DNA of 64,000 nt from Candidatus Woesebacteria bacterium GW2011_GWF1_31_35 (GCA_001029755.1 CP011214.1:493767-557766); one strand, 5' to 3'; shown: positions 11,102 to 52,588, numbered from the stretch's first letter. Notes: a model not told the origin generated them from the sequence alone. Translations and numbers: made by a program.

Positions 11102-11500
11102 TTGAAAATGGTTGAAATTATTATTGATACAAATGCAATTCTTCGTTTTATCTTAAAAGATGTTAGTACACAACATATTGAAATATATGAATTAATTAAA
11201 AAAGCAAAAAATAAAAAGTTAAGAATTATTATTCCTGAAATAGTTGTTTTTGAGACGTATTTTACTTTAAAGAGTTATTATGAATATGAAAAAGAAACTT
11301 TATTAAAAGTTTTAGAGTCATTATTAAGTGCGAATTATCTTAAAATTGAAAATAAACAAATTTTTATGGAAGCTGTAAAAATATATAGAACCAGTAACCT
11401 TGAATTTGTTGATTGTTATTTAGTTTCAAATGCCAAAGCCTTAAATTTGAACATGTTTACTTTTGATAGTAATCTCAAGAAATATTTAATAAAAAAATAA
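11102..11500 (+). CDS. PIN-domain ribonuclease toxin (VapC-like)
   Basis: IIDTNAILRF N-terminal acidic motif, FETYF and FVDCYLV acidic residues; 1-nt gap after the antitoxin. Confidence 0.65.
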   Translation: MKMVEIIIDTNAILRFILKDVSTQHIEIYELIKKAKNKKLRIIIPEIVVFETYFTLKSYYEYEKETLLKVLESLLSANYLKIENKQIFMEAVKIYRTSNLEFVDCYLVSNAKALNLNMFTFDSNLKKYLIKK

Positions 11501-11506
11501 ATTAAT

Positions 11507-12049
11507 TTATTTTTTGTATTCTACAATTTCAGTTGATATAAATTCAAGTTTAATTCCACTCTTTCTAAACATTTTTTCTGATTCAGCTCCTGCATGATAT
11601 TTTTTTTCAGCTACAACTCTTTTAATTCCCGAATTGATAAGAAGCATTGCACAAACTCTGCATGGAGTCATGTTTACATATACTGTTGCGCCATCTAGGG
11701 AAACTCCTCTTTTTGCGGCTTGGCAAATTGCATTTTGTTCTGCATGAACAGTTCTAACACAATGATCAGTAATGGTTCCATCTTCGTGAATTGTTTTTTT
11801 CATTTGATGTCCCACTTCATCACAGTGTGGAAGACCGATAGGAGAACCAACGTAACCAGTTACTAAAATTTGTTTATCCTTTACAAAAACTGCTGACGCT
11901 CTGCCTCTATCACAAGTTGCTCTTTTGGAGACAGATTTCATTATTTCCAAAAAGTATTCATCCCAACTAGGACGAATATAATCAGATGATTTTTTCAATT
12001 GTTTTTTCAACTTCTTCATATAATTTTTTGATTGTACCATTATTATCAA
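11507..12049 (-). CDS. Deoxycytidylate (dCMP) deaminase
   Basis: SWDEYF N-terminal motif, HAEQNAI and PCRVCA zinc-binding motifs; the start is probably the internal Met near 12019, because the ORF overlaps the upstream kinase. Confidence 0.85.
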   Translation of the reverse strand: MIIMVQSKNYMKKLKKQLKKSSDYIRPSWDEYFLEIMKSVSKRATCDRGRASAVFVKDKQILVTGYVGSPIGLPHCDEVGHQMKKTIHEDGTITDHCVRTVHAEQNAICQAAKRGVSLDGATVYVNMTPCRVCAMLLINSGIKRVVAEKKYHAGAESEKMFRKSGIKLEFISTEIVEYKK

Positions 12050-31454: not shown

Positions 31455-31481
31455 TTTTCTTCAAGTGTAAAATACACATAT

Positions 31482-31540
31482 GTCATTATCTGTAGGGACG
31501 CGTATTTTACCGCCCCACAATTTGATTTTTACTTCAAAGT
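31482..31540 (+). repeat. Copy A of a ~55-nt direct repeat (hairpin plus T-rich tail), left flank of the radical-SAM cassette
   Basis: GTCAT...GGGACGCGTATTTTACCGCCCCACAATTTGATTTTTACTTCAAAGT is about 80% identical to copy B at 34266-34328. Confidence 0.6.
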
Positions 31541-31668
31541 AACGCTACCCAAGGCTAGAAAGGAAAGAGAAATAGTTGAGCGAGACTGTTTAGGTGGGAT
31601 TTTAGCTTCAAGAGTGCCAGAAGATAAATACCACACACCTGAACTCACTATATATTAAGAAAATCTTT

Positions 31669-32796
31669 TCAGATAAAGACATCGTTAGTCTGAGGTGTAC
31701 GTATCATGTAAGGTAGAAGATTAATTCCTTGTTCGTGGCCATTAGCTAAAAGATGAAGCAACAAATTTGATTCATGTCGAATGCAATAAAATGGGCAAGT
31801 TTTTTTTGGGTTAATAGATTTAGCTTTTTCTACACGAGCAGTAGAATTCCAATAGTCTTTAAAATTTATTTCTATTGAACCGATTTTTTCGTTTTCATGT
31901 CCGCGTTTGTATGGGCAGGGGTAAATTCCTTTAGGAGTTACAACAGTTCTTAATTCAACACTTGGACAAGTTTGGTAATCTTTTGGTTGATTTGGAAACT
32001 TGTTTGTTAACAAGTAATCAGTGGATTTTGGCGAAATAACTTGAAATTCATTAGTATTTAATGCCTCCAACAATGGAGTTTGTCTTACTATCTCAGATTT
32101 AGTATTTATGGATAAGGGTATGAGGTTGTGGTGTGCATCTACTGCTGGTTTATATTCAAAATAATCACAACCAAGATCTCTGGCCAATTTAGCAGCAACA
32201 AAAAGTTCTTGCACATTTGTTTTAGGTCGAGCATTGGGTAAATTTCTTTCAATTAATAAAAAGCTATATCCAAGAATACCTTTTTTTACTTTTGCGAGAG
32301 TCTCAATGTTTGCAGTTGTTTTTGAGAATGAATTGAGAATGTGTGATGGCCGAAATTTAGAATATGTTTCCTGTGTCCCCGCATCCATTGAGACACGTGT
32401 CCACTGTACACATTCAGCTATTTCGTTGGTATATCTATTCATAAGTGAACCGTTTGTTGTAAGACCGACAGAAATTCCTAACTCATACGCTTTGATAATT
32501 GGTTCTGGCATCGATTTATGAGTAAGTGGTTCACCTCCACCAATGAATATAATTCCTTTAACATCTGTATCGTGAAATTCGTCTATCAATCCAGTCAATC
32601 TTTCGTCTTCAATACCACCTTTATTAAGAAGATTGGCGTTTATACATTCAGGACATGAGAAATTGCATGCCGTAGTCGGATCTAGTTCTACAACTAATGG
32701 ACCTGATGTTTGTCGTTTTTCAATATATTCTTCAACTCTAGGTAAGAGGTTCGGTTGTAGCATTTTATGTGTAAAATTTAATACTTCAATTGACAT
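31669..32796 (-). CDS. Radical SAM enzyme with Cys-rich C-terminal region
   Basis: CNFSCPEC (CxxxCxxC) cluster, GGGEPL SAM motif, extra C-terminal cysteines (CPSVEL, CPYKRG, CPFYC). Confidence 0.75.
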   Translation of the reverse strand: MSIEVLNFTHKMLQPNLLPRVEEYIEKRQTSGPLVVELDPTTACNFSCPECINANLLNKGGIEDERLTGLIDEFHDTDVKGIIFIGGGEPLTHKSMPEPIIKAYELGISVGLTTNGSLMNRYTNEIAECVQWTRVSMDAGTQETYSKFRPSHILNSFSKTTANIETLAKVKKGILGYSFLLIERNLPNARPKTNVQELFVAAKLARDLGCDYFEYKPAVDAHHNLIPLSINTKSEIVRQTPLLEALNTNEFQVISPKSTDYLLTNKFPNQPKDYQTCPSVELRTVVTPKGIYPCPYKRGHENEKIGSIEINFKDYWNSTARVEKAKSINPKKTCPFYCIRHESNLLLHLLANGHEQGINLLPYMIRTPQTNDVFI

Positions 32797-33865
32797 GGCT
32801 ATTTAATTTATTCACTATAACACCATCGTTCGATGGTTTTGTTACATAAACCTTAACAGGTAATTCTTTTAGGGAATTAGTGACTTGTTTTGTATTACAA
32901 TTTGGAACTAGCGCAAAAGTACACCCTCCCATGCCTGTACCAGTTAATTTTGCACCAATGGCACCATATTTTAGCGATCTTGAAATACACTCTTCAATGA
33001 GATTTGTTGAAACTCCCATATAATCACGCATTAGAGTGTGACAGTGTGAAATTGAAGATCCAAGCTTATTTGCATCAATTACTTTTCCATCTAGAATATT
33101 TTTCATTTCGTTTATAGCATCATTTGTTGTATTGACATATTTCATTATTAGAGTTTCCTTGTTTGCATATCTTATGCGTTTTTTTCTTATAACATCTGCT
33201 GTATTTCTTGGTGTGAGAGTATCGACAATCACTATATCAAATCCGTCAGGGAGAACAAATTTTTCAATATTTTTTGGGGGTATAGTTGAACTATCTAAAT
33301 ATATCAAACCACCAATTCCGCATGAATACATATCCATTTGACCTGCCCCTGTTCTTAACTCCTCGGACTCGATTTTATAAGCTAGATCGCAAATGGTTGT
33401 TGTGTCCAAAATTGATCCATAAAAGTTTGCAATCGCAGCAACACTAGCAACTGAAACTGCAGCACTGCTACTTAGTCCAGCTTTTGCAGGAAGATTGCTT
33501 GTAATCTCTATAGTAATTGGATATGTTTTAATACCTAAATCACTAATTACTTTTATTGCAGCATTTGTATAATCCAACACATGGTGTGAATAATTACCGA
33601 TTTGATCTTTTAATAAATCTATCTCAGAGTTTAATGAGCCTTTAGTTTTTAATTTGAATACATCATTATTGTTTGATACTGAAGCTTTAGTTTTTAAATC
33701 AATGGCACACAAAATCGAAGGACCTGTTATCCAGTCAATATCTTCTCCTGCCAAACAAATTCTTCCTGGCGTCGTGGCTTCAATTTCCTGAAACATTTTA
33801 TATAGATTTGGCAGGAATTTTGTCGTCCTTAAAAATTTGTGAATTGTTGTTTCCAGTGAGAACAA
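32786..33865 (-). CDS. GHMP-family sugar kinase (galactokinase-like signature)
   Basis: GRICLAGEDIDW resembles the galactokinase signature GRxNLIGEHxDY; PAKAGLSSSAA GHMP ATP-binding motif. Confidence 0.7.
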   Translation of the reverse strand: MFSLETTIHKFLRTTKFLPNLYKMFQEIEATTPGRICLAGEDIDWITGPSILCAIDLKTKASVSNNNDVFKLKTKGSLNSEIDLLKDQIGNYSHHVLDYTNAAIKVISDLGIKTYPITIEITSNLPAKAGLSSSAAVSVASVAAIANFYGSILDTTTICDLAYKIESEELRTGAGQMDMYSCGIGGLIYLDSSTIPPKNIEKFVLPDGFDIVIVDTLTPRNTADVIRKKRIRYANKETLIMKYVNTTNDAINEMKNILDGKVIDANKLGSSISHCHTLMRDYMGVSTNLIEECISRSLKYGAIGAKLTGTGMGGCTFALVPNCNTKQVTNSLKELPVKVYVTKPSNDGVIVNKLNSHVN

Positions 33866-34178
33866 GTTTTATAACAACAAAAATCGCGGTTTTATCGTTG
33901 GTGTTTGCAAAAGTGTGTATGCTATTTTCTACACGAATTAAGTCTCCCTTTTGCACAGTTTCCTTTTTTTCTGTTTCTTTTTCTAACCATCTTATTTCCA
34001 GAGACCCATCAATTATAAATATCAACTCTTCTACGACATTGTGCGAGTGCCATTCTTGGGTTGTTCCCGCAGGAATTTCATTATAGTGAAGTTCGTATTC
34101 TGGTTGAAGGTAATAGTCTACCTGGGTGCCATCAGGTTTTTTCCTATGAATAGCATTTAGTCGATTTATAATTTCCAT
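33798..34178 (-). CDS. Cupin-fold protein
   Basis: WHSHNVVEEL (HxH...E) and GDLIRVENSIHTFAN cupin motifs. Confidence 0.6.
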   Translation of the reverse strand: MEIINRLNAIHRKKPDGTQVDYYLQPEYELHYNEIPAGTTQEWHSHNVVEELIFIIDGSLEIRWLEKETEKKETVQKGDLIRVENSIHTFANTNDKTAIFVVIKLVLTGNNNSQIFKDDKIPAKSI

Positions 34179-34265
34179 TATTAAAAGCTGAGCCTAAGTT
34201 TACTACTTTTTGTTTGTAAAATCAAACCCCTATAGGGTGTGTTTAATCTGTTATAATTACGTTAT

Positions 34266-34328
34266 GTCATCGCTTTCTTGTGGGACACTCATTTCACCGT
34301 CCCAACTTTTGATTTTCACTTCAAGTTT
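34266..34328 (+). repeat. Copy B of the ~55-nt direct repeat, right flank of the radical-SAM cassette
   Basis: GTCAT...GGGACACTCATTTCACCGTCCCAACTTTTGATTTTCACTTCAAGTT; perfect GGGAC/GTCCC stem followed by a T-rich tract. Confidence 0.6.
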
Positions 34329-34450
34329 AAGATTCCGGAGCCAAATAAAGACAGGTTGATTTTAGAAAGAGATAATTTGGGAAGAATAATTCATTCAGAG
34401 CTTCTTTTTAACCAAATTAAAGAAGATGTAATTGATAGTTTATAAAAATT

Positions 34451-35083
34451 TTGTATAATCATTATATGATTAACGAGGAAGAACAAGGGACGAACTCTCA
34501 GCAATCAGAAAAACCATCTGCTTCAGAAATATTTAGTGGAAAGGATGTTGTAATTGGAAGAGAATTAGTAGAACTTCTTATTGCAGACGAGGTAGGAGTT
34601 CCTGTTTATTATCACAATTATCAGAATTTAGATAAAAAGATTAATGTAATGGTAGATAGAGAGGTGGGAAATGAAGACTATTCTGTAAGACAGAAAGAGG
34701 AAAATCATGACCAGCTTTTAGGAATAATTATTCCTACAGCTGATGCCAAAGACCAGTTTATATATATAGGTATCATGGAAGACGATTTTGTTTTTCAAGC
34801 AGGTAGCGATCTTCAAGCTGAATTTAACCCAGAGTCGAATGTTAGATATACATTTGGTTGGCAAAGATTTGGCGACAGAATTGCTCAGCATGAGAATGAT
34901 TCTACAACCCCAGAACGCTATAAATTAGAGATTCTGTTCAAAGCTCATGAAGACTCCCAAAGATTTGATACGAAAGTTTTGGAGGCAGTAGAAAAAAGAA
35001 GACAAATTCATGAAGCGATACGAAAATCGAGAACTGAAATAAGGCAAAATCTCAAAGACAAACTTTTTGGTGGATCTAGTTAA
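34451..35083 (+). CDS. Hypothetical soluble protein (island cargo)
   Basis: 210-aa ORF, acidic, with no recognisable motif. Confidence 0.45.
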   Translation: MYNHYMINEEEQGTNSQQSEKPSASEIFSGKDVVIGRELVELLIADEVGVPVYYHNYQNLDKKINVMVDREVGNEDYSVRQKEENHDQLLGIIIPTADAKDQFIYIGIMEDDFVFQAGSDLQAEFNPESNVRYTFGWQRFGDRIAQHENDSTTPERYKLEILFKAHEDSQRFDTKVLEAVEKRRQIHEAIRKSRTEIRQNLKDKLFGGSS

Positions 35084-35303
35084 CAATCTTCGTGTTAAAA
35101 TACTCTCATGTCAGCCTTAAAAGTCGGGATATACAGTTCACTATTCCAAAAATAGAATTTGCTTCATCTTTTATACTTCCGTTGCCTCGTAAAGCTAGGT
35201 TTATAACACAAAGAGATTGCTTGGGTAGAATTTTAAACTCAAAAATACCTCCAACTATATATAATTATCGGTCAACATAATAAGAATTTAAGGTGTAAAA
35301 TGT

Positions 35304-35852
35304 TTGTGTATGGAGGCACCATTTGGAATAATTTTTCTTAAAAAGGCAGAATTGTTTAATTTAGTTTCAAGGTTTGATAAACAATATGGTGGTTCGCCTA
35401 GCAATAATCCTTGGTTGATTGAAAAACAAATCTTAAGATGGACATATGGACACCATAAACATCTGGGTAGTCCAATAAAGACAGAGCATTTATCGTTAGG
35501 TTCTCAGAATAACAAACTTCATGATTTTAAAATGATTGATTCAAAAGGTGGACTGAGGTCGCAATTTAAATATTTAGAAAAAAACAGTTTAACTAAGCCT
35601 CTGGAAAACTTGGTTGTAAGGGGGTTTGCCAATTATTTTAACGAGTCAGAAGGACATAATGCTATTGTCATAAACAAAGATGGTTTACTTGTAGGAGAAG
35701 TAATTGCTGACATGGAAAAGGACAATATTTTTATTAAAGCAAATTATCTCTTTTATAGTCATATGATGGATCATCTTGGTGCCACTGTAATGATGATTGT
35801 TACAACAATAGGTCTGATAAAGTTATTTATCAGTTTTTTTTATGTCAAATAA
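35304..35852 (+). CDS. Hypothetical protein with C-terminal TM helix (island cargo)
   Basis: 182-aa ORF overlapping the next gene by 11 nt. Confidence 0.4.
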   Translation: MCMEAPFGIIFLKKAELFNLVSRFDKQYGGSPSNNPWLIEKQILRWTYGHHKHLGSPIKTEHLSLGSQNNKLHDFKMIDSKGGLRSQFKYLEKNSLTKPLENLVVRGFANYFNESEGHNAIVINKDGLLVGEVIADMEKDNIFIKANYLFYSHMMDHLGATVMMIVTTIGLIKLFISFFYVK

Positions 35853-36534
35853 AATTCAACCCATAACAGACTATTTTTTATCATTATCAGCTAATCCTAT
35901 TGTTAAGGCTCTTTCACAAATCAGCGTATTTACGGCACCAGTTAATTCACTTTTTTCTGGTGAATATAGTCGTCTTAAAGAAGAAGAACTCTTAACTGTT
36001 GTTCATTCGTTACATTCAAAAATTCAAACAATTGAGCAGAGGTTTATTGATAAGGACTTCTTTTCTTCATATGACGGAAAAAGAGCTTTTGGTATGGCAT
36101 TTTCATCTTTATTAAAGGATTCTAGAAAGCAAAAATTAGAAGCTATGTCCAATCTGTTGGTAAATCTGAGTTTAAAATCAAATGTGTCTTATGATGAACG
36201 ACTTTTATTTTTGGATATATTAGATAGTCTTAACCCGTTTCAACTTACTGTTTTAGGAAGAATATATGAATTTAATAAAGAAAATAGACCAAATTTAAGA
36301 AAAATAGAACCTTCTGGTATTGCAGATTATTTTGCAGATAAGGGAATTGATAGACAATTAACACTCCAAGCAATATCTATCCTTGCAAACAATTATATTT
36401 TAAATAGAGATTCTAGCCCTGTATTAGGAGGGGGAGGGTTAACCCATCATTTTACGGATTTTGGTGAAAAATTTTATATATTTATCTCAACAGTATTGGA
36501 TAAAAATAGTGAGTATCTAAAGATAACTAGTTAG
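35842..36534 (+). CDS. Hypothetical protein (island cargo; weak resemblance to Abi-type proteins)
   Basis: 230-aa ORF translationally coupled to the upstream gene; no confident motif. Confidence 0.4.
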   Translation: MSNKIQPITDYFLSLSANPIVKALSQISVFTAPVNSLFSGEYSRLKEEELLTVVHSLHSKIQTIEQRFIDKDFFSSYDGKRAFGMAFSSLLKDSRKQKLEAMSNLLVNLSLKSNVSYDERLLFLDILDSLNPFQLTVLGRIYEFNKENRPNLRKIEPSGIADYFADKGIDRQLTLQAISILANNYILNRDSSPVLGGGGLTHHFTDFGEKFYIFISTVLDKNSEYLKITS

Positions 36535-36748
36535 GTTTGATATCCAACAATTTTGACAATGTTGTATCCAATGCTCTGGCTATATTGTATGCTGTTCTAA
36601 TAGATATATTCCTTCCCTTTTCAATATCCCAGAAATATGCTCTATGTAAGTTTGATTTTTCAGCTAGTTGTTCTTGGGTCATTCCCTTTTCCTTGCGTAG
36701 CCATTCAATTCTTTCACCTAACTTTCTGTAAATAGGTTTGTAATTCAT
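36527..36748 (-). CDS. XRE-family helix-turn-helix transcriptional regulator
   Basis: LRKEKGMTQEQLAEKSNLHRAYFWDIEKG is a canonical XRE/Cro-CI HTH. Confidence 0.8.
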   Translation of the reverse strand: MNYKPIYRKLGERIEWLRKEKGMTQEQLAEKSNLHRAYFWDIEKGRNISIRTAYNIARALDTTLSKLLDIKPN

Positions 36749-36863
36749 ACCCTAAGGGTAGTAGATTCCAAAATAAATCTTTACCAGATATATCTTGCTT
36801 TTATAGTCGTTGGAGGCGTATTATCAAGATAACATGTTCTGTTATCAGAATACTTAGATAGAT

Positions 36864-37556
36864 ATGGAAGAAATACGATTTTCAAAAAATAATGCAAAAA
36901 AATTTAGAAATATTTGGCTTGTAAGTTTATTGCTCTTTGTAGTTTCTATAATAGGTATGCTTTCAAATATTGCCACCGATAATACTGGCACATATTTTGG
37001 TCTGTTTACGCTCATTTTATCCCTTTCTGTTATCGTTGGTTCTTTGTCATTTGTTATATGGATATACAAAATAGGAAATAAAATAATTAAGAATATTATT
37101 AAGATTCTTGGAATGCTAACGGGAAGTATATTTTTTCTTATGATTTTATGGATGATCCTTTTTCGCTATGCGATTGTTGATGGAAGTTCAATGGAGCCAT
37201 CATATAAACACAATGAAATATATCTTGTTAGTAAGTTCGCCCTCAAATCTAGTGATCCTAAACGAGGAGATGTAGTTGATTATTACTTTATTAATAAAAA
37301 TAATGAGAGGATGGGTAGAATAGTGGGTTTACCACACGAAACCATTCTTGTAGCCTCTGACGAGCTTACAGTTGACGGTAATAAGCTTGATGAACCTTAT
37401 GTTGATTGGAGTGAATGGACCAAGGGAAGAGAAGAAAACATCACCCTTAAAGACGGCGAGTTTCTAGTGCTTTTTGATAAAAGGGGTGGGGACATGCAAG
37501 TTATTAAAAAAGAAAACATAATAGGTAAATTTATATTCAAGCTATACGCTAAATGA
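36864..37556 (+). CDS. Signal peptidase I (S26 family)
   Basis: DGSSMEPS catalytic Ser box and GDVVDYYF; two N-terminal TM helices. Confidence 0.7.
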   Translation: MEEIRFSKNNAKKFRNIWLVSLLLFVVSIIGMLSNIATDNTGTYFGLFTLILSLSVIVGSLSFVIWIYKIGNKIIKNIIKILGMLTGSIFFLMILWMILFRYAIVDGSSMEPSYKHNEIYLVSKFALKSSDPKRGDVVDYYFINKNNERMGRIVGLPHETILVASDELTVDGNKLDEPYVDWSEWTKGREENITLKDGEFLVLFDKRGGDMQVIKKENIIGKFIFKLYAK

Positions 37557-38173
37557 AATCTATCTTCAAAAAGTTTTTTTCAGAAATAAAAAGAATGGCA
37601 GATAATTATAGTTCATTAATTTTAATACTGATTTTAATTGTGCTTATTGCTCCTTATGCATTTCAGTTAACAAACAAGTTAAAAAATAATTATGTTTTAA
37701 ATAAAAGGTTCAAGGTAGAACTGAGGGAAAGAGAAATTGAAAAGCTTAAACAAGAAAATGTTAATAACAAAATCAATAATCTAATCCAACAATACAATAT
37801 TGAAACACTTACGAGTGGTGGGTTTGTAAAACTATTATATGAATATTTGGATGCTAAATCAGATATTGAAAGATATTACAAAGATTATAACCTGTCTTGC
37901 GCAGACTTAGCCAATGGAGTGGAATATAAATCTGACTCCACTTTTTTTAATGATATAGACTTCTCTAGATTTACACGAGATATTGCTATTGAAAATTGTC
38001 AGATAGCTAATTCAACAAAAGGTCATTATGAACAATTTATTAAAGAAAAAGGTTTGATTGAAAAACTTATTTCTGAAAACCAAAATAATACAGATCTAGA
38101 AATCAGAGATTTTATATCAAACATTTCTAGACAATTAGTATCCATAAACTTAAAATTGAGTCTATTAGATTAA
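37553..38173 (+). CDS. Hypothetical membrane-anchored coiled-coil protein
   Basis: N-terminal TM, a coiled-coil stretch, 4-nt overlap with the signal peptidase gene. Confidence 0.4.
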   Translation: MKSIFKKFFSEIKRMADNYSSLILILILIVLIAPYAFQLTNKLKNNYVLNKRFKVELREREIEKLKQENVNNKINNLIQQYNIETLTSGGFVKLLYEYLDAKSDIERYYKDYNLSCADLANGVEYKSDSTFFNDIDFSRFTRDIAIENCQIANSTKGHYEQFIKEKGLIEKLISENQNNTDLEIRDFISNISRQLVSINLKLSLLD

Positions 38174-38180
38174 CGAAATT

Positions 38181-38810
38181 ATGAAAAAATATCTGTTGAT
38201 AATATTTTTAGGAGCCCTAACACTTTCTGTATTTACTTTTATTAATAGATCTAACCCAATTATTAATGTTAAAAATACAAACCAATCACCTTCTATAAAA
38301 GATAGTTCTCAAGCAGAATGCCCTTTTTTTGTAGATAAAAACTTTCCAAAAGAATACTTTTCTAATGTATTTAATGAAGTAATGGTGTCTTACCCTCCTT
38401 CTCTGATCACTTCCAATCAAGAAATAATTCCCATTAAAGAAAGATTCAATCCATTAAAAGAACCTTTTGGCGGTGAATTTTATACGATTCCTAAAGGAGC
38501 ATATCCTTGGACCGAAAGAAATTTTGATCTAGATAACGACGAGAAGAAGGAAAGGATTTTATCTGCAGATACTGCCATGAATCACACACCAAATTTGGCA
38601 GTAATTGTTAAGGATGGATACATAATTTATAAAACCAAGGGGGCAAATGTATATATAAGTGAGGTTGGTGACCATAATGGATTTTTTCTCCATGAAAATA
38701 CCGATTGGAATAGTGGAGAATATAAAACCACTAGGTATGTTCATAAGGACGAAAAATTCATTCCTGTTTGGTTTCAAACCTCTTGTGTTGTTAGACCACA
38801 AAGTGACTAA
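38181..38810 (+). CDS. Hypothetical secreted protein
   Basis: Signal peptide MKKYLLIIFLGALTLSVFTF. Confidence 0.4.
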   Translation: MKKYLLIIFLGALTLSVFTFINRSNPIINVKNTNQSPSIKDSSQAECPFFVDKNFPKEYFSNVFNEVMVSYPPSLITSNQEIIPIKERFNPLKEPFGGEFYTIPKGAYPWTERNFDLDNDEKKERILSADTAMNHTPNLAVIVKDGYIIYKTKGANVYISEVGDHNGFFLHENTDWNSGEYKTTRYVHKDEKFIPVWFQTSCVVRPQSD

Positions 38811-39227
38811 CTCCTTGTGTGTATAAGGACTACACATGTTTGTGCCCATCCTCAAGCATCCCATCAAGGCTAGAGTCATTTTCTACAAGCAAAACAACTT
38901 CAATGCAATATCAATGCAATTGCCTAGGCAAGGGCAAGGCTACGCCCTGTGCAAATGTAATGACTATATTGCTAAGTAGCAGGTTTGGTAATTGAACTAT
39001 ACCTACCCTCCATATTAATATTTTGGTTCCCTGTGGGTATTGATATTATTTGATAGATGAGATATATTGATATAGTCAAGAGAGATTGGAGATAGAAAAA
39101 TATACAGAAAGATCTCCAGTTTTCTCCATTACACAAAGTAATTAATACACTAATCATTTAGCACAGCCATTGTCCCAGCTCCATTTGAGCGTTTGACCAA
39201 GGCACCGCATTAAGATTCAAAATTTTT

Positions 39228-39245
39228 AAGACGGTGTCTTTTTTG
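39228..39245 (+). terminator. Intrinsic terminator-like hairpin (AAGAC-GGT-GTCTT followed by TTTTTT)
   Basis: 5-bp GC-containing stem and a 6-T run. It sits at the end of a 450-nt ORF-free GC-shifted segment, inside the 9-bp inverted repeat TTTGACCAA/TTGGTCAAA. Confidence 0.4.
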
Positions 39246-39261
39246 TTGGTCAAATATTTAT

Positions 39262-39444
39262 ATGATTAATGATACTAGTCAAGCTATATTAACAAGCCCA
39301 GAACCCCTTGTAGTGGCTCAAAAGTGTCCTGTGTGTAATGGTTTCGGAACTTTAAAATATGGATCTTTAATTTGTCATGGTTGTTCTGGTAAGGGTTACA
39401 TATTGATACCTAACAATATTAGTTCAAAAAAGAACAAACAATAG
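39262..39444 (+). CDS. Small DnaJ-type zinc-finger protein (two CxxCxGxG repeats)
   Basis: CPVCNGFG and CHGCSGKG. Confidence 0.45.
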   Translation: MINDTSQAILTSPEPLVVAQKCPVCNGFGTLKYGSLICHGCSGKGYILIPNNISSKKNKQ

Positions 39445-39456
39445 AAAGTTGGAATC

Positions 39457-40011
39457 ATGACACTATACAGAATTGAAGATGTTAAAAAGAAATATCCAAA
39501 TTGGTTTTCCGCCGATTCTGAATTAACTTATGATGAACAAAAATGGATATGGGAAAATTCACTGTTACCTGAAGGCAATAACAAAGGCTTAGAACAAGTA
39601 GGTAAACAAGATAGCACAAGTATTAGTCTTATTAGAAGTGTTAGTGGTATACGGAATCTTAAAGAAAATGTAAACGAAAACCGACAGAAAAATGAAGCAA
39701 TTAAGGATCTTCAAGATTACACATACAAAACCCCCCTTAAATTCATAGCGATAAAATTAGAAACCATATTTGGCATATGGGATAAAAAGCCTTTCCACTG
39801 GATATATATAGCAGAGAACTACACTCCTAAAGCAATAAATTCTGTTTTAAGAGAGATGAGAAAACGAAAAGAAAACGGAGGTATGCCATTAGAGATACCT
39901 GGTGCCTATTTTACTAAAGTATTAACAAAGTATCACTCCAAAAGAAAATTACCCAAACGAAAAGAGATTGCATATACCAATGGAGGCATCAAACAGCAAA
40001 ATAATGAATAA
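39457..40011 (+). CDS. Hypothetical protein (island)
   Basis: 184-aa ORF, basic C-terminus. Confidence 0.4.
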   Translation: MTLYRIEDVKKKYPNWFSADSELTYDEQKWIWENSLLPEGNNKGLEQVGKQDSTSISLIRSVSGIRNLKENVNENRQKNEAIKDLQDYTYKTPLKFIAIKLETIFGIWDKKPFHWIYIAENYTPKAINSVLREMRKRKENGGMPLEIPGAYFTKVLTKYHSKRKLPKRKEIAYTNGGIKQQNNE

Positions 40012-40178
40012 GTTAAAAGTTCTAAAACTTAATTTCTATTCGTGCGAAGGAAATGATTATAAACATGAGGTGAATAGTTTTTACTTCAATTTGTTTGACA
40101 ATATTTTAAGAGAAATACGACAAAAGTCATTGACAATAAAGTGTGATATAAATACACTAAAGTTAACTAAAGTATAGT

Positions 40179-40355
40179 ATGAATGATGAATATCTTACAT
40201 TAGAAGAAGTTTCAAAAAAACTAAAAGTGAATAAAATCACAGTTTACAGAATGGCAAAAAGGGGAAAAATCCCTGCATTTAAATTCGGAAAAGTATGGAG
40301 AGTTGATAATAAAAAGTTAGAAAGAATGATAGAAAGAAAATTAAATGGAAAATGA
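40179..40355 (+). CDS. Excisionase-family (HTH_17 / Xis-like) DNA-binding protein, 58 aa, not in the supplied ORF track
   Basis: Translation gives MNDEYLTLEEVSKKLKVNKITVYRMAKRGKIPAFKFGKVWRVDNKKLERMIERKLNGK. The LTxxEVxxxLxVxxxTVYRxxxxGxIPAxKxGxxWR pattern is diagnostic. It overlaps the recombinase start by 11 nt. Confidence 0.65.
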   Translation: MNDEYLTLEEVSKKLKVNKITVYRMAKRGKIPAFKFGKVWRVDNKKLERMIERKLNGK

Positions 40356-41976
40356 CAAAAAAATTGTAGCTATATATGCGAGGGTATCAACTGGAAGGCA
40401 GGAACAGGAAGCAACTATTGAATCTCAATTGGATGAAGTTAAAAGGAAAATTATAGAAGATGGACATATATTACCTGATGAAAATATCTTTATAGATGAT
40501 GGATGGTCTGGCGAACTTATAGCTAGACCAGACCTAGACAGAATGAGGGATTTTGCTTTGACGGGAAAATTTTCTGCTTTATATGTTTATGACAGGGGAA
40601 GATTATCAAGAAGATTTACTCATCAAGAAATAGTTATTGAGGAACTGTCCGATAAAGAAATTGGTTTTATTTCTCTTCATGATATTAATGCACTGACTCC
40701 AGAAGAACATGTTTTGCAAGCAATGCAGGGTGTATTTCACGAATATGAAAGAGTAAAAATTGTTGAAAGGATGAGAAGGGGGAAATTATTTAAAGCAAGG
40801 AACGGAATAGTAATTAGTGGCGATGCTTTGTATGGTTATAAGTATGTTAAAAAGACTGATACTACTCCTACACATTGGGCAATAGATGAAAACGAGAGCG
40901 AAGTGGTTAAGAAAATGTTTAGGTGGTTTGTGATAGATAAAATAGGCATTAACGCAATTATTAACAAGCTATCTGATGAGGGAATTCCAACAAAAAAAGG
41001 TAAGAGTAAACATTGGACTAAAGGACCAGTTAGTAGAATATTGTGTTGTGATACTTACTTTACTGGAGTGGCTTACTACAATAAATCAGAGTCAATTGTA
41101 AGTAAACGAAGGTTAAAGAATGAAAAGTATTTCAAAATCAAGAAAAATAGTCGTAAACAACGACCTAAAGAGGAATGGATTCCATTTGATGTGCCGATAA
41201 TTATAGAAGATAAATCTTTTTTTGATAGATCACTTCAACTATTAAATTACAACAAAAAATTTGCCAATAAGAATAAAAAATTTGACTACATTCTTTCAGG
41301 AAAATTTTACTGTGAACACGGCTTCCCAATGGTTGGAGATGGTAAACAAGGCAGTCAAAGATATTATCGTAGCAGTGATAAAGTTCGCAGGAACGAATTA
41401 AGAACTTGTGATTGTGAGGGGGTGAATGTTTTTGTTGTTGAGGGTCTTTGGTGGAAACATATTAAGGATATAATATCTAATCCTGATTTTATAAAACTGA
41501 AAATTAAAGAATATGTTGAATCAAGAGCAGGAGTTAATACATCATTTGAACAAGACATACTTATAAATAAAACAAAGATCTCTAATTTAACTGATCAGGA
41601 GTCAAAATTTGCACAAATGTATGCTGAGAATTTGATTGATCTTGATCAATTGAGAGGATTGATTAAACAAGTAAAAGATAGGAAATTCATATTTACACGG
41701 AATCTTAAAAAACTAGAAAGAATTAAACCAGTAAAAGTAAGAATTAACGATGAAGAAATATCTCTACTTTACGATAAGGCAAGAGAGGTATTACAATCAC
41801 AAGACTTTTCGGATAAAAATTTGGTGTTACGAGATTTAGTGAGTAAAATAGTATTAAAGAAAGGAGGAGAGGTAAATACATGGATAAATATACCAATAAA
41901 TACCCAATACTTGGAACATGGGACTGAGCGTAGGGATAGTAGGTCTTCCAAATGTGGGGAAGTCCACACTTTTTAA
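40345..41976 (+). CDS. Large serine recombinase (resolvase/invertase catalytic domain, recombinase domain and zinc ribbon)
   Basis: IYARVSTGRQE catalytic Ser motif, DRLSRR-like block (DRGRLSRR), GYKYV recombinase domain, Cys clusters; the 3' end overlaps ychF by 59 nt. Confidence 0.8.
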   Translation: MENDKKIVAIYARVSTGRQEQEATIESQLDEVKRKIIEDGHILPDENIFIDDGWSGELIARPDLDRMRDFALTGKFSALYVYDRGRLSRRFTHQEIVIEELSDKEIGFISLHDINALTPEEHVLQAMQGVFHEYERVKIVERMRRGKLFKARNGIVISGDALYGYKYVKKTDTTPTHWAIDENESEVVKKMFRWFVIDKIGINAIINKLSDEGIPTKKGKSKHWTKGPVSRILCCDTYFTGVAYYNKSESIVSKRRLKNEKYFKIKKNSRKQRPKEEWIPFDVPIIIEDKSFFDRSLQLLNYNKKFANKNKKFDYILSGKFYCEHGFPMVGDGKQGSQRYYRSSDKVRRNELRTCDCEGVNVFVVEGLWWKHIKDIISNPDFIKLKIKEYVESRAGVNTSFEQDILINKTKISNLTDQESKFAQMYAENLIDLDQLRGLIKQVKDRKFIFTRNLKKLERIKPVKVRINDEEISLLYDKAREVLQSQDFSDKNLVLRDLVSKIVLKKGGEVNTWINIPINTQYLEHGTERRDSRSSKCGEVHTF

Positions 41977-42889
41977 TGCTCTTTTAAAAAAGCAACTTGC
42001 ATATGTTGCTAATTTTCCATTTGCAACGATAGAACCTAATATTGGAGTTGTTCCTGTTCCTGATGAAAGACTTACTAAATTATCTAAAATATATAATTCT
42101 CCAATTGTTCCAGCTACTGTTCAATTTGTAGATATTGCAGGACTAATTGCAGGAGCTTCTAAAGGAGAAGGACTTGGAAATAAATTTTTAAGTCACATTA
42201 GAGACGTATCCGCAATTTGTCATGTAATTCGAGTATTTACTGATCCTGACATAATAAAGCAAGGAGTAGTAAGTCCTAAAGATGATTTTGAAATAGTTAA
42301 ACTTGAATTGGATTTAGCTGATCAGCAAACTTTAGAAAATCATGAAAAGAAAAAAAATAAAGATATTGAGAGTTTACCTTTATTTTCTAAAAAACCTATT
42401 TTAATTGTTTTAAATATTGATGAAAAAGATTTAGTTAAGGCAGAAGAATTGGAAGGTGAGTATGCTACCAAACTTGGTGTTTTAAAAGATCAAGTCGTTG
42501 CAGTATCTGCAAAAGTTGAATCAGAACTATCAGAACTTTCAGAAGATGATCAAAAATCATATCTTTCCGATTTAGGTGTTAAAAACTCAGGACTTGAAAG
42601 ACTTATTCAAAAAGCATTTAAAACATTAGGATTAATTACCTTTTTAACTGCAGGTGAAAAAGAAGTTAGGGCTTGGACTATTAAAGATGGAATTACAGCT
42701 CAGGAGGCATCTGGTGTTATTCATACTGATTTTATGAATAAATTTATAAAAGCTGATATTTGTAATTTTAATGATTTTATAGAGAATAATGGATGGAAAA
42801 ACGTTAGAGAATTAGGAAAGGTAAGAAGCGAAGGAAGAGATTATATAGTTAAAGATGGAGATGTTGTTGAATTTAAAATTGGAAGTTAA
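41918..42889 (+). CDS. ychF: Ribosome-binding ATPase YchF (Obg-family GTPase)
   Basis: GIVGLPNVGKSTLFNAL G1 motif and a TGS-like C-terminus. Confidence 0.85.
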   Translation: MGLSVGIVGLPNVGKSTLFNALLKKQLAYVANFPFATIEPNIGVVPVPDERLTKLSKIYNSPIVPATVQFVDIAGLIAGASKGEGLGNKFLSHIRDVSAICHVIRVFTDPDIIKQGVVSPKDDFEIVKLELDLADQQTLENHEKKKNKDIESLPLFSKKPILIVLNIDEKDLVKAEELEGEYATKLGVLKDQVVAVSAKVESELSELSEDDQKSYLSDLGVKNSGLERLIQKAFKTLGLITFLTAGEKEVRAWTIKDGITAQEASGVIHTDFMNKFIKADICNFNDFIENNGWKNVRELGKVRSEGRDYIVKDGDVVEFKIGS

Positions 42890-49448: not shown

Positions 49449-49985
49449 TTGTCAAGCCAACATAAAATATATAGAATGGCATTACCTATGGATATAACTT
49501 TTATTTCAGGCCAAACATTCAAAATTAAAGGTAGAACTGGTATTACTTTAACAGATCCAATTGGTCCAACAATAGAATCTTTAAATGGAGAAAAAAAGAC
49601 GTTTACAGGGCCGGGAGAATATGAAGTTTCTGGAATTTCAATAATTGGAATTTCAACAGATGATGGAACTTTATTTATTTATGAAGTGGACGGCTTAAGA
49701 ATTTGCCATGTTGGAAACTTAAAGAAAAAACTTCCAGAAAACAAATTATCATTTATTGGTGATATCGATATATTGTTAACTTCTATAGGACCTGAAACTA
49801 TTGAAATAATTCAACAAATAGAAAGTTATTATGTAATTCCATTTGATTATGAATCACAAGAACAACTTGATAAATTCTTAAAAGATAGTGGATTAACTGT
49901 AGAAAAAATGTCTAAATTTAGCCTTAAAAAAGAAGAAATAATTGAAGAGTCCTCTGCTCAAGTTATTGTCCTAGAGAAAAATTAA
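49449..49985 (+). CDS. Hypothetical protein
   Basis: 178-aa ORF with no confident motif. Confidence 0.4.
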   Translation: MSSQHKIYRMALPMDITFISGQTFKIKGRTGITLTDPIGPTIESLNGEKKTFTGPGEYEVSGISIIGISTDDGTLFIYEVDGLRICHVGNLKKKLPENKLSFIGDIDILLTSIGPETIEIIQQIESYYVIPFDYESQEQLDKFLKDSGLTVEKMSKFSLKKEEIIEESSAQVIVLEKN

Positions 49986-52588
49986 TGGCAGACATAAATC
50001 AAGTTAGAGTACCTCCGCACTCTGCCGAAGCCGAAGGAAGCGTCCTCGGAGCTCTTCTATTGGATAAAGATGCTGTTATAGCTGTTGCTGAATTTTTACT
50101 ACCTGAGGATTTTTACGATGAACGCAACAAAGAAATATATGAAGCAATGCTTACTTTATATGAAGAAAGAGTTCCAGTTGATGTTTTAACAGTAACTGAA
50201 AAATTAAAAAAGAATAAGAATTTAAAAAAAATAGGTGGTGCATCATATTTAACAGATATTGCCAATAAAGTTCCAACTGCAGCTCATGTTGAGCATTATG
50301 GAAAAATAGTTAAAGATTCTTCAGTTAAAAGAGCTTTAATGAAAGCTGCAAGTAGACTTGTTGATTTTTCAATGGATGAGGGAATGTCATCGGGAGATCT
50401 TTTGGATAGGGCAGAATCAGAAGTTTTCTCTTTAACTCAGAAACATCTAACTAAAGCCTTTACTTCTGTAAGAGATACTTTGGCTGAAAGTTTCGATAGA
50501 TTAGATGAACTTCATAAACAGGGAGAGGGTTTAAGGGGGGTATCAACTGGCTTTGAAGATCTTGATAATGCTTTAGCGGGAATGCAAAAATCGAATCTTT
50601 TAATATTAGCAGCTAGGCCGTCTGTTGGTAAAACTTCATTGGCATTAAACATTGCTCAACATGCAGCTGTAACTGATAAACGATCAGTTGGTTTTTTCTC
50701 ACTTGAAATGAGCAAAGAGGAATTAGTAGATAGACTTTTAGTTGCTCAAGCTGATATTGATGCTTGGAGATTAAAAACAGGAAAATTAACAGAAGAAGAT
50801 TTTACTAAACTATCAAATGCAATGGGAGAGTTAGCCGAAGCGCCTCTTTACATTGATGACACCCCAGCTCTTTCTATATTAGAGATGAGAACAAAAGCAA
50901 GAAGACTTCAGGTTGAACATGGGCTTGACCTTTTGGTTGTTGATTATCTTCAACTTGCAAGAAGTAGAAACTTGGAGAATAGGGTTCAGGAAGTTTCTGA
51001 AATTTCACAAGGACTTAAAAACTTAGCAAGAGAACTTAAAGTTCCAGTTTTAGCTCTATCTCAACTTTCAAGAGGTGTAGAATCAAGGGGAGTAAAAAAG
51101 CCCCAATTATCGGATTTGAGAGAGAGTGGATGTCTTTTGGGGGATACTTTAATAACTCTTTATAAATCAGGCGAAAGAGTCAGAATGGATTCATTAGTTG
51201 GAAAGACAAATTTCAAAGTTTTGGGTATGAATGATAATTTTGAGATTGTACCAGTAACTGTTTCAAAAGTTTTTGAAAGTGGCAAGAAATTATCTTATAA
51301 ATTAATACTTAAAAGTGGGAGAATCGTCTTTGCATCGGGAAATCATCCTTTTTACAAACTTACGGGTTGGGAAAGACTTGATAAACTTAAAGTTAAAGAT
51401 AACATTGCTGTTCCTAGAAAAATTATTAATAAGATAAACTTAAAATCTGCACTTTCTGATTCACGCCTGATTTTACTTGCTCATTTAATTGGCGATGGAT
51501 GCTTTGTTAAAAGACAACCTTTACATTATACAAATTCAGAAATGAAACTTATTAAGATTGTAGAGAAGTCTGCATTAAAGGAATTTAATATAGTTCCTAG
51601 AATTATTAAACAAGAAAATTGGTACCATATCTATCTTTCTTCTAAAGAAAAATTAGCAAGGGGAAGAAGAAACCCAATTGTTAAGTGGTTGGATGAGGAA
51701 TTAAATATTTATGGACAAAGATCAAGAGAAAAAATCATTCCAGATATTGTTTTCCAACAAAATGACAAAAAAATATCATTATTTCTAAAACATTTATGGT
51801 CAACTGATGGATGTATTTATGTTTATAAAGGAAAAGATAAGAGAAAAGTTACTCTTTATTACGCTTCGGGAAGTAGAATATTAGCTGAACATGTATCACA
51901 TTTACTCTTAAGACTTGGAATTATTTCAACGATAACTACTTCAAAAAAGAAAGGTTATGAAGATATATATAATGTTCAAATTCAAGGTAAAGAAAATCAA
52001 ATCAAGTTTATTAGAAAAATAAATTTTGTCGGTATAAAGGCTAATAAATCAATAGAAGCACTTTTATTTTTAAAAAGAATTAAATCAAACCCAAATAATG
52101 ATGTAATTCCAAAAGAAATTTGGGAATATATTGAAAGTATTAGAAGAGAAGAGTGTTTAACAACAAGGGAATTTCATAAAAAAATGGGTTGGGCATATAG
52201 TGGAACACAAAGACATGGAAATGGTGTAGGAAGAGAAAGATTAGATAAAATTGCAAAAATATTAGAGGATAAATATTTATCAAATTTAGCAAACTCAGAT
52301 TTATACTGGGATGAAATAGCAAGTATTGAAAAAATTGGAATTAAAAAAGTATATGATCTGACCGTACCTAAATATTCAAATTTTGTTGCAAATGACATAT
52401 TAGTTCATAACAGTATAGAGCAAGACTCTGACGTCGTTATGTTTTTATGGCGCGAAGATGATGAAAAGATTGAAAATATTAGACTTGATGTTGCAAAACA
52501 CAGGAATGGTCCTTTAGCTTCAGTTCCATTATTCTTTAAAGGAGACAGAATAAAGTTCTATGCAAGAGATGTAAAAAGTGGGAAATAA
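49985..52588 (+). CDS. dnaB: Replicative DNA helicase DnaB interrupted by an intein
   Basis: DnaB N-domain, Walker A (ARPSVGKTS) and H4 motif (SQLSRGVESR). The extein resumes with SIEQDSDVVMFLWRED after a 427-aa insertion. Confidence 0.9.
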   Translation: MADINQVRVPPHSAEAEGSVLGALLLDKDAVIAVAEFLLPEDFYDERNKEIYEAMLTLYEERVPVDVLTVTEKLKKNKNLKKIGGASYLTDIANKVPTAAHVEHYGKIVKDSSVKRALMKAASRLVDFSMDEGMSSGDLLDRAESEVFSLTQKHLTKAFTSVRDTLAESFDRLDELHKQGEGLRGVSTGFEDLDNALAGMQKSNLLILAARPSVGKTSLALNIAQHAAVTDKRSVGFFSLEMSKEELVDRLLVAQADIDAWRLKTGKLTEEDFTKLSNAMGELAEAPLYIDDTPALSILEMRTKARRLQVEHGLDLLVVDYLQLARSRNLENRVQEVSEISQGLKNLARELKVPVLALSQLSRGVESRGVKKPQLSDLRESGCLLGDTLITLYKSGERVRMDSLVGKTNFKVLGMNDNFEIVPVTVSKVFESGKKLSYKLILKSGRIVFASGNHPFYKLTGWERLDKLKVKDNIAVPRKIINKINLKSALSDSRLILLAHLIGDGCFVKRQPLHYTNSEMKLIKIVEKSALKEFNIVPRIIKQENWYHIYLSSKEKLARGRRNPIVKWLDEELNIYGQRSREKIIPDIVFQQNDKKISLFLKHLWSTDGCIYVYKGKDKRKVTLYYASGSRILAEHVSHLLLRLGIISTITTSKKKGYEDIYNVQIQGKENQIKFIRKINFVGIKANKSIEALLFLKRIKSNPNNDVIPKEIWEYIESIRREECLTTREFHKKMGWAYSGTQRHGNGVGRERLDKIAKILEDKYLSNLANSDLYWDEIASIEKIGIKKVYDLTVPKYSNFVANDILVHNSIEQDSDVVMFLWREDDEKIENIRLDVAKHRNGPLASVPLFFKGDRIKFYARDVKSGK
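51131..52411 (+). mobile_element. Intein (Hint domain with LAGLIDADG homing-endonuclease module) in the DnaB helicase domain
   Basis: N-terminal splice junction RESG|CLLGDTLI, LAHLIGDGCF LAGLIDADG motif, C-terminal junction ILVHN|S; in frame with dnaB. Confidence 0.8.

Follow-up and report, generated by a model that had tools for sequence, protein, structure and literature searches.

The locus upstream of ychF

Here we describe a tandem array of inserted units at the 5′ end of ychF in Candidatus Woesebacteria bacterium GW2011_GWF1_31_35, analysed within a stretch of 64,000 nucleotides (nt), hereafter the window (GCA_001029755.1 CP011214.1:493767-557766; coordinates count from its first letter). 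An earlier note on this DNA had singled out seven genes at 34451-38810, here called ORF1, ORF2, ORF3, XRE, S26, ORF6 and ORF7 (ORF, open reading frame), as one candidate accessory or defence module between an enzyme cassette and a recombinase gene. That block spans two units of a larger structure and is not one defence module. Three copies of a junction of ~190 nt, overlooked at the time, have their cores at 31495, 34282 and 35126, and the gene of a large serine recombinase reads directly into ychF. The attachment (att) site lies inside the recombinase gene, the start of ychF is the target, and units with and without a recombinase stand in tandem. It is probable, in our view, that a CcrB-like large serine recombinase with the att site inside its own gene produced the region from 31.5 to 41.9 kb by three site-specific insertions in the first codons of ychF. 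With the same confidence, we place this site between the body of the enzyme and a C-terminal tail of ~45 residues, integration splitting the gene. The junctions, the recombinase, its target and the units are as follows.

31466-31655, plus strand: junction 1 (attL type) with tail C0; box 31468-31473, ATG 31480, MSLSVG, GGGA 31495-31498
34249-34445, plus strand: junction 2 (attL type) with tail sA; TG-n-TATAAT 34249-34257, ATG 34264, MSSLSCG, GGGA 34282-34285
35093-35280, plus strand: junction 3 (attL type) with tail sB; TG-n-TAAAAT 35093-35101, ATG 35108, MSALKVG, GGGA 35126-35129
40345-41976, plus strand: recombinase body; large serine recombinase of 543 amino acids (aa), tail-less
41918-41937, plus strand: attR junction, ATGGGACTGAGCGTA-GGGA-T; core GGGA 41933-41936
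41918-42889, plus strand: ychF (TIGR00092, 4.6e-112), its first five to six codons coming from the element
31495-34282: cassette A, tail C0 and three inverted enzyme genes
31669-34178, minus strand: cargo of cassette A, namely radical SAM, GHMP kinase and cupin genes (Pfam labels), inverted relative to the array
34282-35126: cassette B, tail sA and ORF1; a single gene, no recombinase
35126-41933: element C, 6.8 kb; tail sB, ORF2, ORF3, XRE, S26, ORF6, ORF7, a gap of 451 nt and further genes, which in order toward ychF are Zn-ribbon, p184, p69, excisionase and recombinase body

Because the radical SAM, GHMP kinase and cupin genes are flanked by the cores at 31495 and 34282, they form another inserted unit. 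Junction 3 is the left end of the recombinase-bearing element.

An att site inside the recombinase gene

The recombinase has the domain set of the large serine recombinases (PF00239, 6.3e-26; PF07508, 1.3e-13; phrog_95 integrase, 1.9e-67), and no tyrosine recombinase is present in the region. One public source labels it 'cassette chromosome recombinase, CcrB-like'. All 60 aligned sequences, the window protein included, have the catalytic Ser16, and the unusual zinc-ligand residues of the window enzyme are common to 10-13 of the 60 relatives. The enzyme looks intact, as judged from its sequence. It ends in ...HGTERRD-SRSSKCGEVHTF-stop, the last 12 residues being ychF DNA read in another frame. 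At attR, the same bases encode both HGTERRD of the recombinase (CAT GGG ACT GAG CGT AGG GAT) and MGLSVGI at the ychF start (ATG GGA CTG AGC GTA GGG ATA); the right-end sequence common to the two genes is ATGGGACTGAGCGTAGGGAT. An intact recombinase gene on a related contig (L014) holds the identical 21-nt string and then continues into the tail. Since the window recombinase reads through GGGA (41933) into ychF and lacks the tail, the att site lies inside the recombinase gene.

Each junction consists of a -10-like box, 6-7 nt, an ATG, 4-5 further YchF codons, GGGA and a tail ORF of 45-50 codons. In the window the boxes are TGnTAAAAT or TATAAT and the spacer is 6 nt. This anatomy is identical in the three window copies, in the related contigs L011, L014 and L018, and at 16 more Patescibacteria loci. 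Uninterrupted ychF genes carry the same promoter-ATG arm, and the ychF 5′ end of one locus (L021) is nearly identical to the left arm of sB. We read the window junctions as attL type: at GGGA, the tail of the element follows the promoter and start of the host ychF gene, and the overlap of recombinase and ychF is their attR counterpart. Junctions of attL and attR type and one attP-type sequence have a common core, GGGA(T/C), and the attP-type sequence contains a dyad, GGGAC-N25-GTCCC, read by eye. The ychF-SSB-S41 flank is kept in all related loci, such that the right flank is conserved and the left flank variable.

The small ORFs are detached recombinase tails

Two small conserved ORFs in the block (34257-34445 and 35080-35280) and a third at 31455-31655 had also escaped the earlier note. 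The first two are 45% identical over 40 residues, and a profile built from both finds the third copy plus two copies in L011; with the tail hidden Markov model (HMM), C0 is matched at E=1.4e-19. The junction copies went undetected by a DNA repeat finder because their DNA is too diverged. Substitutions between copies fall mostly at third codon positions (17/8/24 and 1/1/5 at positions 1/2/3, the latter between sB and its L011 copy, which are 85% identical); the tail sequence has therefore evolved under coding constraint.

In a search of 1.84 billion representative proteins, 174 cluster representatives match the three window tail copies. Most are 50-80 aa long with the motif at the extreme C-terminus, and several are C-terminal pieces of large serine recombinases. 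Two long proteins, P0057 (4223 aa) and P0069 (995 aa), have 8-10 tail-profile matches each; as P0069 resembles a translated tandem DNA repeat, neither was taken as a true multi-domain relative. The genome scan for tails used a narrowed alignment, the first tail alignment being too diverse. Among the 120 closest homologues of the window recombinase, the tail is present in 6 by HMM or 7 by classification of the protein ends. One of these, P0174, has the intact C-terminus ...YGTERRD-THFAVPTFDFYFK..., the tail stretch after YGTERRD being THFAVPTFDFYFKIELPKANKERIIMERDNLGRI. Nearly all the others stop 4, 7 or 12 residues past ...R(D/N), and these tail-less endings resemble SRSSKCGEVHTF, that is, the P-loop region of ychF (GIVGLPNVGKSTLFN) in another frame.

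The window body joined to any of the window tails gives an open frame, in frame throughout, of 583 aa with C0, 583 aa with sA and 580 aa with sB. Four intact homologues measure 573-580 aa, versus 580-583 aa for the rejoined window enzyme. An AlphaFold2 (AF2) model of an intact enzyme has a confident body, a disordered linker that coincides exactly with the att-encoded residues 523-540 and, after the linker, a small three-strand module of modest confidence. One intact-tail relative, of 603 aa and with a longer linker, lies between KsgA-side genes and a convergent ABC-F gene (L037, 10001-11812). Since this gene is not at ychF, the tail is native, or ancestral, to the enzyme clade. The split arrangement thus appears specific to the ychF-targeting members of the clade.

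Units and cargo at related loci

Contig L011 carries the same element behind a different neighbour. Its identity to the window is 85% for sB, 94.5% for ORF2, 97% for ORF3, 90% for XRE, 79% for S26 and 53% for ORF6; ORF1 is absent, and a GrpB cassette with its own tail stands in the position of ORF1. This confirms the boundary between cassette B and element C.

In L016 and L018, recombinases 60-65% identical to that of the window overlap the ychF start within the same ychF-S6-SSB-S18 synteny, and the cargo is other. The L016 element, in a complete 916-kb Woesebacteria genome (CP066693.1; L016 1661-4374 and 5091-9512), includes an OLD-type ATPase with TOPRIM and a UvrD helicase, a pair that is Gabija-like by domain content. 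Further genes in it encode a Terminase_2 small terminase, a DUF5659 protein and a 675-aa AAA_25 protein, which suggests a satellite-like replicative element; the left junction is farther away than the 10 kb covered. L018 carries DUF5680, NUDIX and an overlapping gene pair. This pair (4688-6301; 238 and 233 aa), followed by a convergent XRE gene, occupies the slot of ORF2-ORF3, and its first member has a weak Schlafen/AlbA_2 match. We considered it as a diverged ORF2-ORF3 and rejected this, as no relationship was found by BLASTP or with the ORF3-family profile. The slot looks like an exchangeable two-gene position.

The cargo of L014 includes Mrr_cat. On this 13-kb contig the recombinase gene with an intact tail lies at 10001-11743, and detached tails, one of them truncated, lie upstream at 2356-2415 and 3541-3693. 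L014 must be a circular composite element or else a tandem array in whose middle the recombinase gene has been rebuilt.

Recombinase-less arrays in other Patescibacteria

We scanned 16 species-representative loci (L021-L036) for arrays and sought a recombinase within 10 kb. In 11 of the 16, tail junctions immediately precede ychF on its own strand, and no recombinase is present over that distance. These loci hold one to four cassettes each, seven of the 11 having two or more (examples are L021 51-4705, L022 7496-11165, L024 8861-12950 and L025 9246-11804). The cassettes are mostly single-gene units of 0.65-1.3 kb. By Pfam, their cargo includes AAA_14/DUF4143, HAD, endonuclease/exonuclease/phosphatase (EEP), peptidase S51, reverse transcriptase and a BrnT/CopG toxin-antitoxin pair. 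Some junctions are split, decayed or frameshifted (L021 2645-2813, L022 7496-7564). The distal tails are the most decayed in L022, L025 and L030, and the opposite holds in one array.

A model for integration, excision and cassette exchange

In the model that we favour, integration would leave the recombinase body on the ychF-proximal side, reading into ychF, and would move the tail to the distal side, where the promoter and start displaced from ychF precede it. For excision, the right junction could pair with any of the three left ones; this would restore the recombinase gene to full length and take the DNA in between along, neighbouring cassettes included if an outer left junction were used. 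Re-excision via an inner left junction, later and in a new genome, would leave the cassettes behind, with ychF driven by the promoter arm of a cassette. Such pick-up and leave-behind, which would need no more than attP x attB and attL x attR recombination of the canonical type, would yield recombinase-less arrays like those of other genomes; recombination of a cassette circle with attB, not a known activity of these enzymes, would account for the origin of cassettes. The displaced ychF promoters face, and probably express, ORF1 and ORF2-ORF3; the 6-7-nt spacing from box to ATG suggests leaderless mRNA. XRE may repress the rightward operon that leads to the excisionase and the recombinase. Coding constraint acts on the tails, also on those of recombinase-less cassettes, which suggests that the full-length enzyme, made from the circle only, would need its tail; that the tail acts in directionality is a guess.

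Several results count against this model. The predicted attP forms join the recombinase end to sB, sA or C0 (for example ...GAGCGTAGGGATATACAGTTCAC), and the predicted restored ychF forms join a displaced arm to ...GGGATAGTAGGTCTTCC. The attP junction was not found in Joint Genome Institute (JGI) metagenome contigs, and none of the three predicted full-length recombinases or the three restored YchF proteins occurs among ~15 billion proteins. All 24 of the 24 contigs read show the same integrated arrangement, and exact look-ups of YchF and of the cupin protein, made for an empty site, returned this arrangement only. The Zn_ribbon_recom domain (PF13408) scores 22.1 bits, below the Pfam cut-off of 25.3. 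A promoter and terminator scan of the region gave nothing above chance, and the promoter reading therefore draws solely on what is conserved between loci. On their right side, the recombinase-less cassettes have a genuine ychF promoter arm and not a recombinase 3′ end; the canonical reactions would therefore explain how cassettes spread and not how they originated. Direct movement of cassettes would need a pairing of sites that, to our knowledge, large serine recombinases do not perform.

The same results could be accommodated if the array were a fossil, that is, if successive integrations at ychF had decayed by deletion, recombinase-less units being immobile remnants with tails that are slow to decay. 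The missing excision product of this copy (in JGI contigs and among the ~15 billion proteins), the identical arrangement in 24 contigs and the decayed or frameshifted tails of L021 and L022, together with the poorer state of distal tails in L022, L025 and L030, all fit such a history. Random deletion would not, however, leave 11 genomes with neat units in which a tail and a single gene are followed by an intact promoter arm of ychF that abuts the next core, nor does decay account for the purifying-selection pattern in tails that are all in frame with the recombinase body. Moreover, one and the same element is preceded by one cassette in the window and by another in L011. We therefore regard a fossil array as unlikely.

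Three insertions by a recombinase that is split on integration may also form part of a wider scheme, which we put forward tentatively and with less conviction than the insertions themselves: in Patescibacteria, a serine recombinase would support integron-like gene capture, docking at the 5′ end of ychF, with cassettes exchanged between genomes. A cassette would then consist of a swappable C-terminal exon of the recombinase, one or a few genes and a replacement promoter and start for ychF. A complete recombinase would be encoded by the excised circle alone, its tail serving as a built-in switch between integration and excision, and every cassette would be expressed from the displaced ychF promoter in front of it. 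Exchange might proceed by hitch-hiking via alternative left sites or by a non-canonical pairing of cassette site and attB.

Genes of the block and its surroundings

The genes and other features of cassette B and element C, up to the recombinase, are listed here.

34466-35083, plus strand: ORF1, 205 aa from the ATG at 34466 (a TTG at 34451 in the earlier note); sole cargo of cassette B
35304-35852, plus strand: ORF2, 180-182 aa, basic, with a C-terminal membrane segment
35842-36534, plus strand: ORF3, 230 aa, with a helical N-terminal half and a winged-helix-like C-terminal half
36527-36748, minus strand: XRE-family helix-turn-helix (HTH) protein, 73 aa, convergent with ORF3 and divergent from S26-ORF6-ORF7
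36828-36846: palindrome GATAACA-TGTTC-TGTTATC, 18 nt upstream of the S26 start
36864-37556, plus strand: S26 homologue, 230 aa, three hydrophobic segments
37553-38173, plus strand: ORF6, 206 aa, N-terminal membrane segment
38181-38810, plus strand: ORF7, 209 aa, signal-peptide-like N-terminus
38811-39261: gene-free stretch of 451 nt, no credible ORF and no Rfam match
39262-39444, plus strand: Zn-ribbon protein, 60 aa, 72% identical to the product of a gene in the L018 element
39457-40011, plus strand: p184, 184 aa, a backbone gene like those of the Zn-ribbon protein and p69
39968/39980-40177, plus strand: p69, 65-69 aa, 51-52% identical to genes directly 5′ of the recombinase in L016 and L018
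40179-40355, plus strand: excisionase-type HTH protein (HTH_17; TIGR01764, 2.6e-11), with a 67% identical homologue in L016

All seven ORFs of the earlier note are real genes at the coordinates given there. The gene calls of public assemblies agree (ORF1 and ORF2 starting with ATG at 34466 and 35310, respectively), identical proteins are deposited in NCBI under Candidatus Woesebacteria genomes, and family matches bear out the XRE protein and the signal peptidase homologue. With a GC content of ~30% and an estimated stop frequency of ~0.08 per codon, an open frame of at least 180 codons would arise by chance at ~3e-7 per start (our own calculation); the seven ORFs are therefore not products of chance. 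The overlap between ORF2 and ORF3 is 11 nt long, and that between XRE and the 3′ end of ORF3 is 8 nt long. ORF1 is acidic, as described (isoelectric point 4.9), and hydrophobic segments were detected for the C-terminal transmembrane segment of ORF2, the N-terminal one of ORF6 and the secreted-type N-terminus of ORF7. The signal peptidase, described as having two transmembrane segments, has three hydrophobic segments instead (19-37, 47-65 and 81-99). Also missed were the four further genes that separate ORF7 from the recombinase (Zn-ribbon, 184 aa, 65-69 aa and excisionase-type HTH).

Scans of the island proteins against Pfam, PADLOC, PHROGs and NCBIfam gave matches only for XRE, S26, the excisionase and the recombinase, and none for ORF1, ORF2, ORF3, ORF6 or ORF7. 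Rfam returned nothing on the island at gathering or permissive thresholds. The HTH_17 protein is a candidate directionality factor by its sequence family. The 451-nt stretch at 38811-39261 could hold an origin or a regulatory region. Separately, the GC content of this stretch is somewhat above that of its surroundings. Elsewhere in the window, at 49985-52588, a public gene call carries Pfam labels for a DnaB helicase with an intein and a LAGLIDADG endonuclease domain.

The cargo proteins

ORF1 has no match in Pfam, PADLOC, PHROGs, NCBIfam or PDB and no relative in JGI metagenome contigs. The best sigma-70-like match of the region, TTGATA-16-TATAAT (11/12), lies at 34432-34459, in the 3′ end of tail sA. 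As it is directly 5′ of the ORF1 ATG, ORF1 may have a promoter of its own in addition to the displaced ychF promoter. The only homologue found for ORF2 is the L011 copy (94.5% identity), and the protein has no family or PDB match.

The ORF3 family comprises just 16 clusters at 52% identity or more, on which single-sequence and profile searches agree. Outside L011, its homologues are 52-61% identical and have no XRE gene, peptidase gene or ORF2 beside them. In L004-L009 the ORF3 homologue is preceded by an unrelated 132-aa membrane protein with an 11-nt overlap, and in L010 and L012 it stands alone. The AF2 model of ORF3 has a predicted local distance difference test (pLDDT) score of 62. In fold searches its C-terminal half is MarR/PadR winged-helix-like, with no match at E<=1e-3; the ORF3-family profile found nothing among PDB sequences, and tblastn nothing among phage genomes.

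UniRef names ORF3 a 'DUF4393 domain-containing protein', and nine of 17 ORF3-family members match PF14337 (Abi_alpha) in one register with 10-13 bits, below threshold. Two points count against the link: these scores are far from the gathering score of 29 bits, and window ORF3 itself has no match to PF14337 at E<=1 in the Pfam scan. ORF3 may thus be a DUF4393/Abi-alpha relative, a weak lead and not membership. If any of the cargo acts in phage exclusion, ORF2-ORF3 is the likeliest, although we rate this function as less probable than not.

The element genes and alternatives for the block

XRE matches HTH_3 (PF01381) at E=4e-13 over 55 of 55 profile positions; in PADLOC it matches generic HTH control-protein models only, as would any XRE protein. 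Its homologues lie inside the L016 element and, in L018, between the non-homologous gene pair and an ORF6 homologue. Since XRE stays beside the ORF6 homologue in L018 while the pair in front is non-homologous, it behaves as the regulator of the element, and the distribution fits an XRE that is the own regulator of the element and not of the pair. The palindrome at 36828-36846 is a candidate XRE operator. ORF6 has homologues in L011 (53% identical) and L018 (28% identical, beside XRE) and matches no family or PDB entry; it belongs to the backbone of the element and co-occurs with XRE. ORF7 has no homologue among the loci, viral contigs or PDB. Viral contigs also hold no relatives of the intact recombinase or of S26, and tblastn finds no further S26 homologue in the window.

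The S26 homologue is well supported as a family member (Peptidase_S26, 8.9e-16; TIGR02227, 78.3 bits with a cut-off of 47; PF10502, 58.7 bits with a cut-off of 22.9). It keeps the catalytic Ser (GSSMEPS) but has Gly at the position of the general-base Lys (ERMGRIVGLPHE): aligned to ...YVKRVIG... of SpsB, the window protein reads ...RMGRIVG.... The L011 copy, 79% identical, has Gly at the same position. Box E is degenerate.

These features bear on whether S26, ORF6 and ORF7 form a working secretion-processing unit, in which a dedicated peptidase matures the secreted or membrane proteins of the element, much as SipW matures TasA in Bacillus. Tight packing or overlap of the three genes, the N-terminal hydrophobic segments of ORF6 and ORF7, and a peptidase that exceeds its NCBIfam cut-off and retains the nucleophile Ser would suit such a unit. 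Against it stand the Gly in place of the general base in both known copies and the degenerate box E, the ORF6 homologue of L018, which lies beside XRE without any peptidase, and an ORF7 without detectable relatives. We consider a working unit improbable; for the S26-like protein, a role as a non-canonical or non-catalytic partner of ORF6/ORF7 is likelier than that of a working signal peptidase. The missing Lys also weakens the earlier proposal that a secreted island product is processed.

Still less probable, and in our view very unlikely, is that the seven genes are one XRE-controlled accessory or defence module (toxin-antitoxin, abortive infection or superinfection exclusion) with a peptidase that matures its secreted product. 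XRE does sit between the pair and the peptidase operon and, as any XRE protein, resembles the control proteins of PADLOC defence systems. A weak but consistent Abi-alpha/DUF4393 tie for ORF3 and the defence-type cargo of sister elements leave something of the proposed link to defence. Of the earlier note, the view of the genes as mobile-element cargo served by the recombinase also stands, and their unity does not. Junction 3 splits off ORF1 in its own att-delimited cassette, GrpB taking its place in L011. The supposed conserved pair is not one, as ORF3 occurs in four other contexts without ORF2, XRE or S26, the near-identical L011 copy apart. XRE, proposed as the regulator of the pair, co-occurs with ORF6 and not with the pair. 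The suggested PADLOC scan is without hits for ORF1, ORF2, ORF3, ORF6 and ORF7 (E<0.01), and the peptidase lacks the catalytic Lys.

It is hardly credible that the small ORFs are independent small proteins or regulatory leaders of variable operons, unrelated to recombination sites: for all their coding-type substitutions, their frequent annotation as genes of 50-80 aa and a promoter-like box on each, the same sequence is the in-frame C-terminus of intact serine recombinases, copies occur only upstream of ychF or of a recombinase reading into ychF, three of the five copies in the window and L011 have no ATG, GTG or TTG downstream of the box in the conserved frame, and the C0 frame has no such start anywhere, the conserved ATG being in the ychF frame.

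Comparison with known systems

The map that emerges is clearer than that of a single block: ORF1 is a stand-alone cassette, ORF2-ORF3 a variable cargo pair, XRE and ORF6 belong to the backbone, and the peptidase is probably non-working. One stretch of 20 nt, read in two frames, ties together the full-length enzyme, ychF and the expression of cargo. Cassette arrays at ychF suggest a platform for gene exchange in a phylum of tiny genomes with few known routes of gene transfer, and control of directionality by the tail, if true, would be of interest for the engineering of serine integrases.

Catalytically altered signal-peptidase homologues that miss part of the Ser/Lys dyad exist in streptococcal pilus islands (SipA/LepA). 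The likeness lies in an S26-fold protein with an incomplete dyad beside secreted or membrane proteins on an accessory element; the window protein differs in that it retains Ser and loses just Lys, and pilin and sortase genes are absent nearby.

Prophage 6 of Enterococcus faecalis encodes Abi-alpha (EF2833, DUF4393/PF14337), for which abortive infection has been demonstrated by experiment, infected cells being lysed prematurely (PMC6356687). ORF3 is like it in its similar size, mobile-element location and weak same-register PF14337 matches. By contrast, Abi-alpha acts as a single gene, whereas ORF3 is translationally coupled to a membrane protein, and the ORF3-family scores are far under the Pfam threshold.

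In the literature searched, we found no serine recombinase gene that spans its own att site, no ychF att target in Patescibacteria and no cassette arrays of the Candidate Phyla Radiation, which is an absence in that literature and not proof of novelty. A large survey of serine recombinase att sites mentions no such case in the passages searched (PMC10083194). Staphylococcal cassette chromosome (SCC) elements have a serine recombinase, an end-of-gene target and composite arrays with recombinase-less, att-bounded units (bioRxiv 10.64898/2026.03.31.715619). The window array resembles SCC, SCCmec and enterococcal ECC (CcrAB/CcrC) in its insertion at one end of a conserved housekeeping gene, in repeated insertion and in several left sites, inner and outer, of which the window has three for one recombinase. 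It differs in the target, which for SCC is the 3′ end of rlmH (orfX) and here the 5′ start of ychF. Further differences are an att site within the gene of the recombinase, an enzyme that is truncated on integration, a target whose start codon has to come from the element, and many single-gene units of about 0.7-1.3 kb.

The 'suicidal' integrases of the Sulfolobus spindle-shaped virus (SSV) type, found in archaeal viruses and plasmids, are tyrosine enzymes with attP in the integrase ORF, described as restricted to archaea; their att site is translated as part of the enzyme, excision rebuilds the gene, and hybrids can arise from halves of different origin (PMC7253208). An att site in the recombinase ORF and a gene split to both ends of the element are common to that type and to the window. 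The SSV type, however, is an archaeal tyrosine recombinase with tRNA-gene targets that is left as two inactive halves, whereas here a bacterial serine recombinase loses a module of ~45 residues and its catalytic, recombinase and zinc-ribbon domains stay intact.

With integrons the array shares small, mostly single-gene and diverse cassettes that are bounded by sites, gathered at one chromosomal position and faced by a promoter. The two are unlike in recombination chemistry and in the logic of their sites. Unlike in integrons, the tyrosine recombinase IntI and folded attC sites are absent, the junctions are conserved as coding sequence and not as folded inverted repeats, and each of them carries the promoter and start codon of a host gene together with a recombinase-coding exon.

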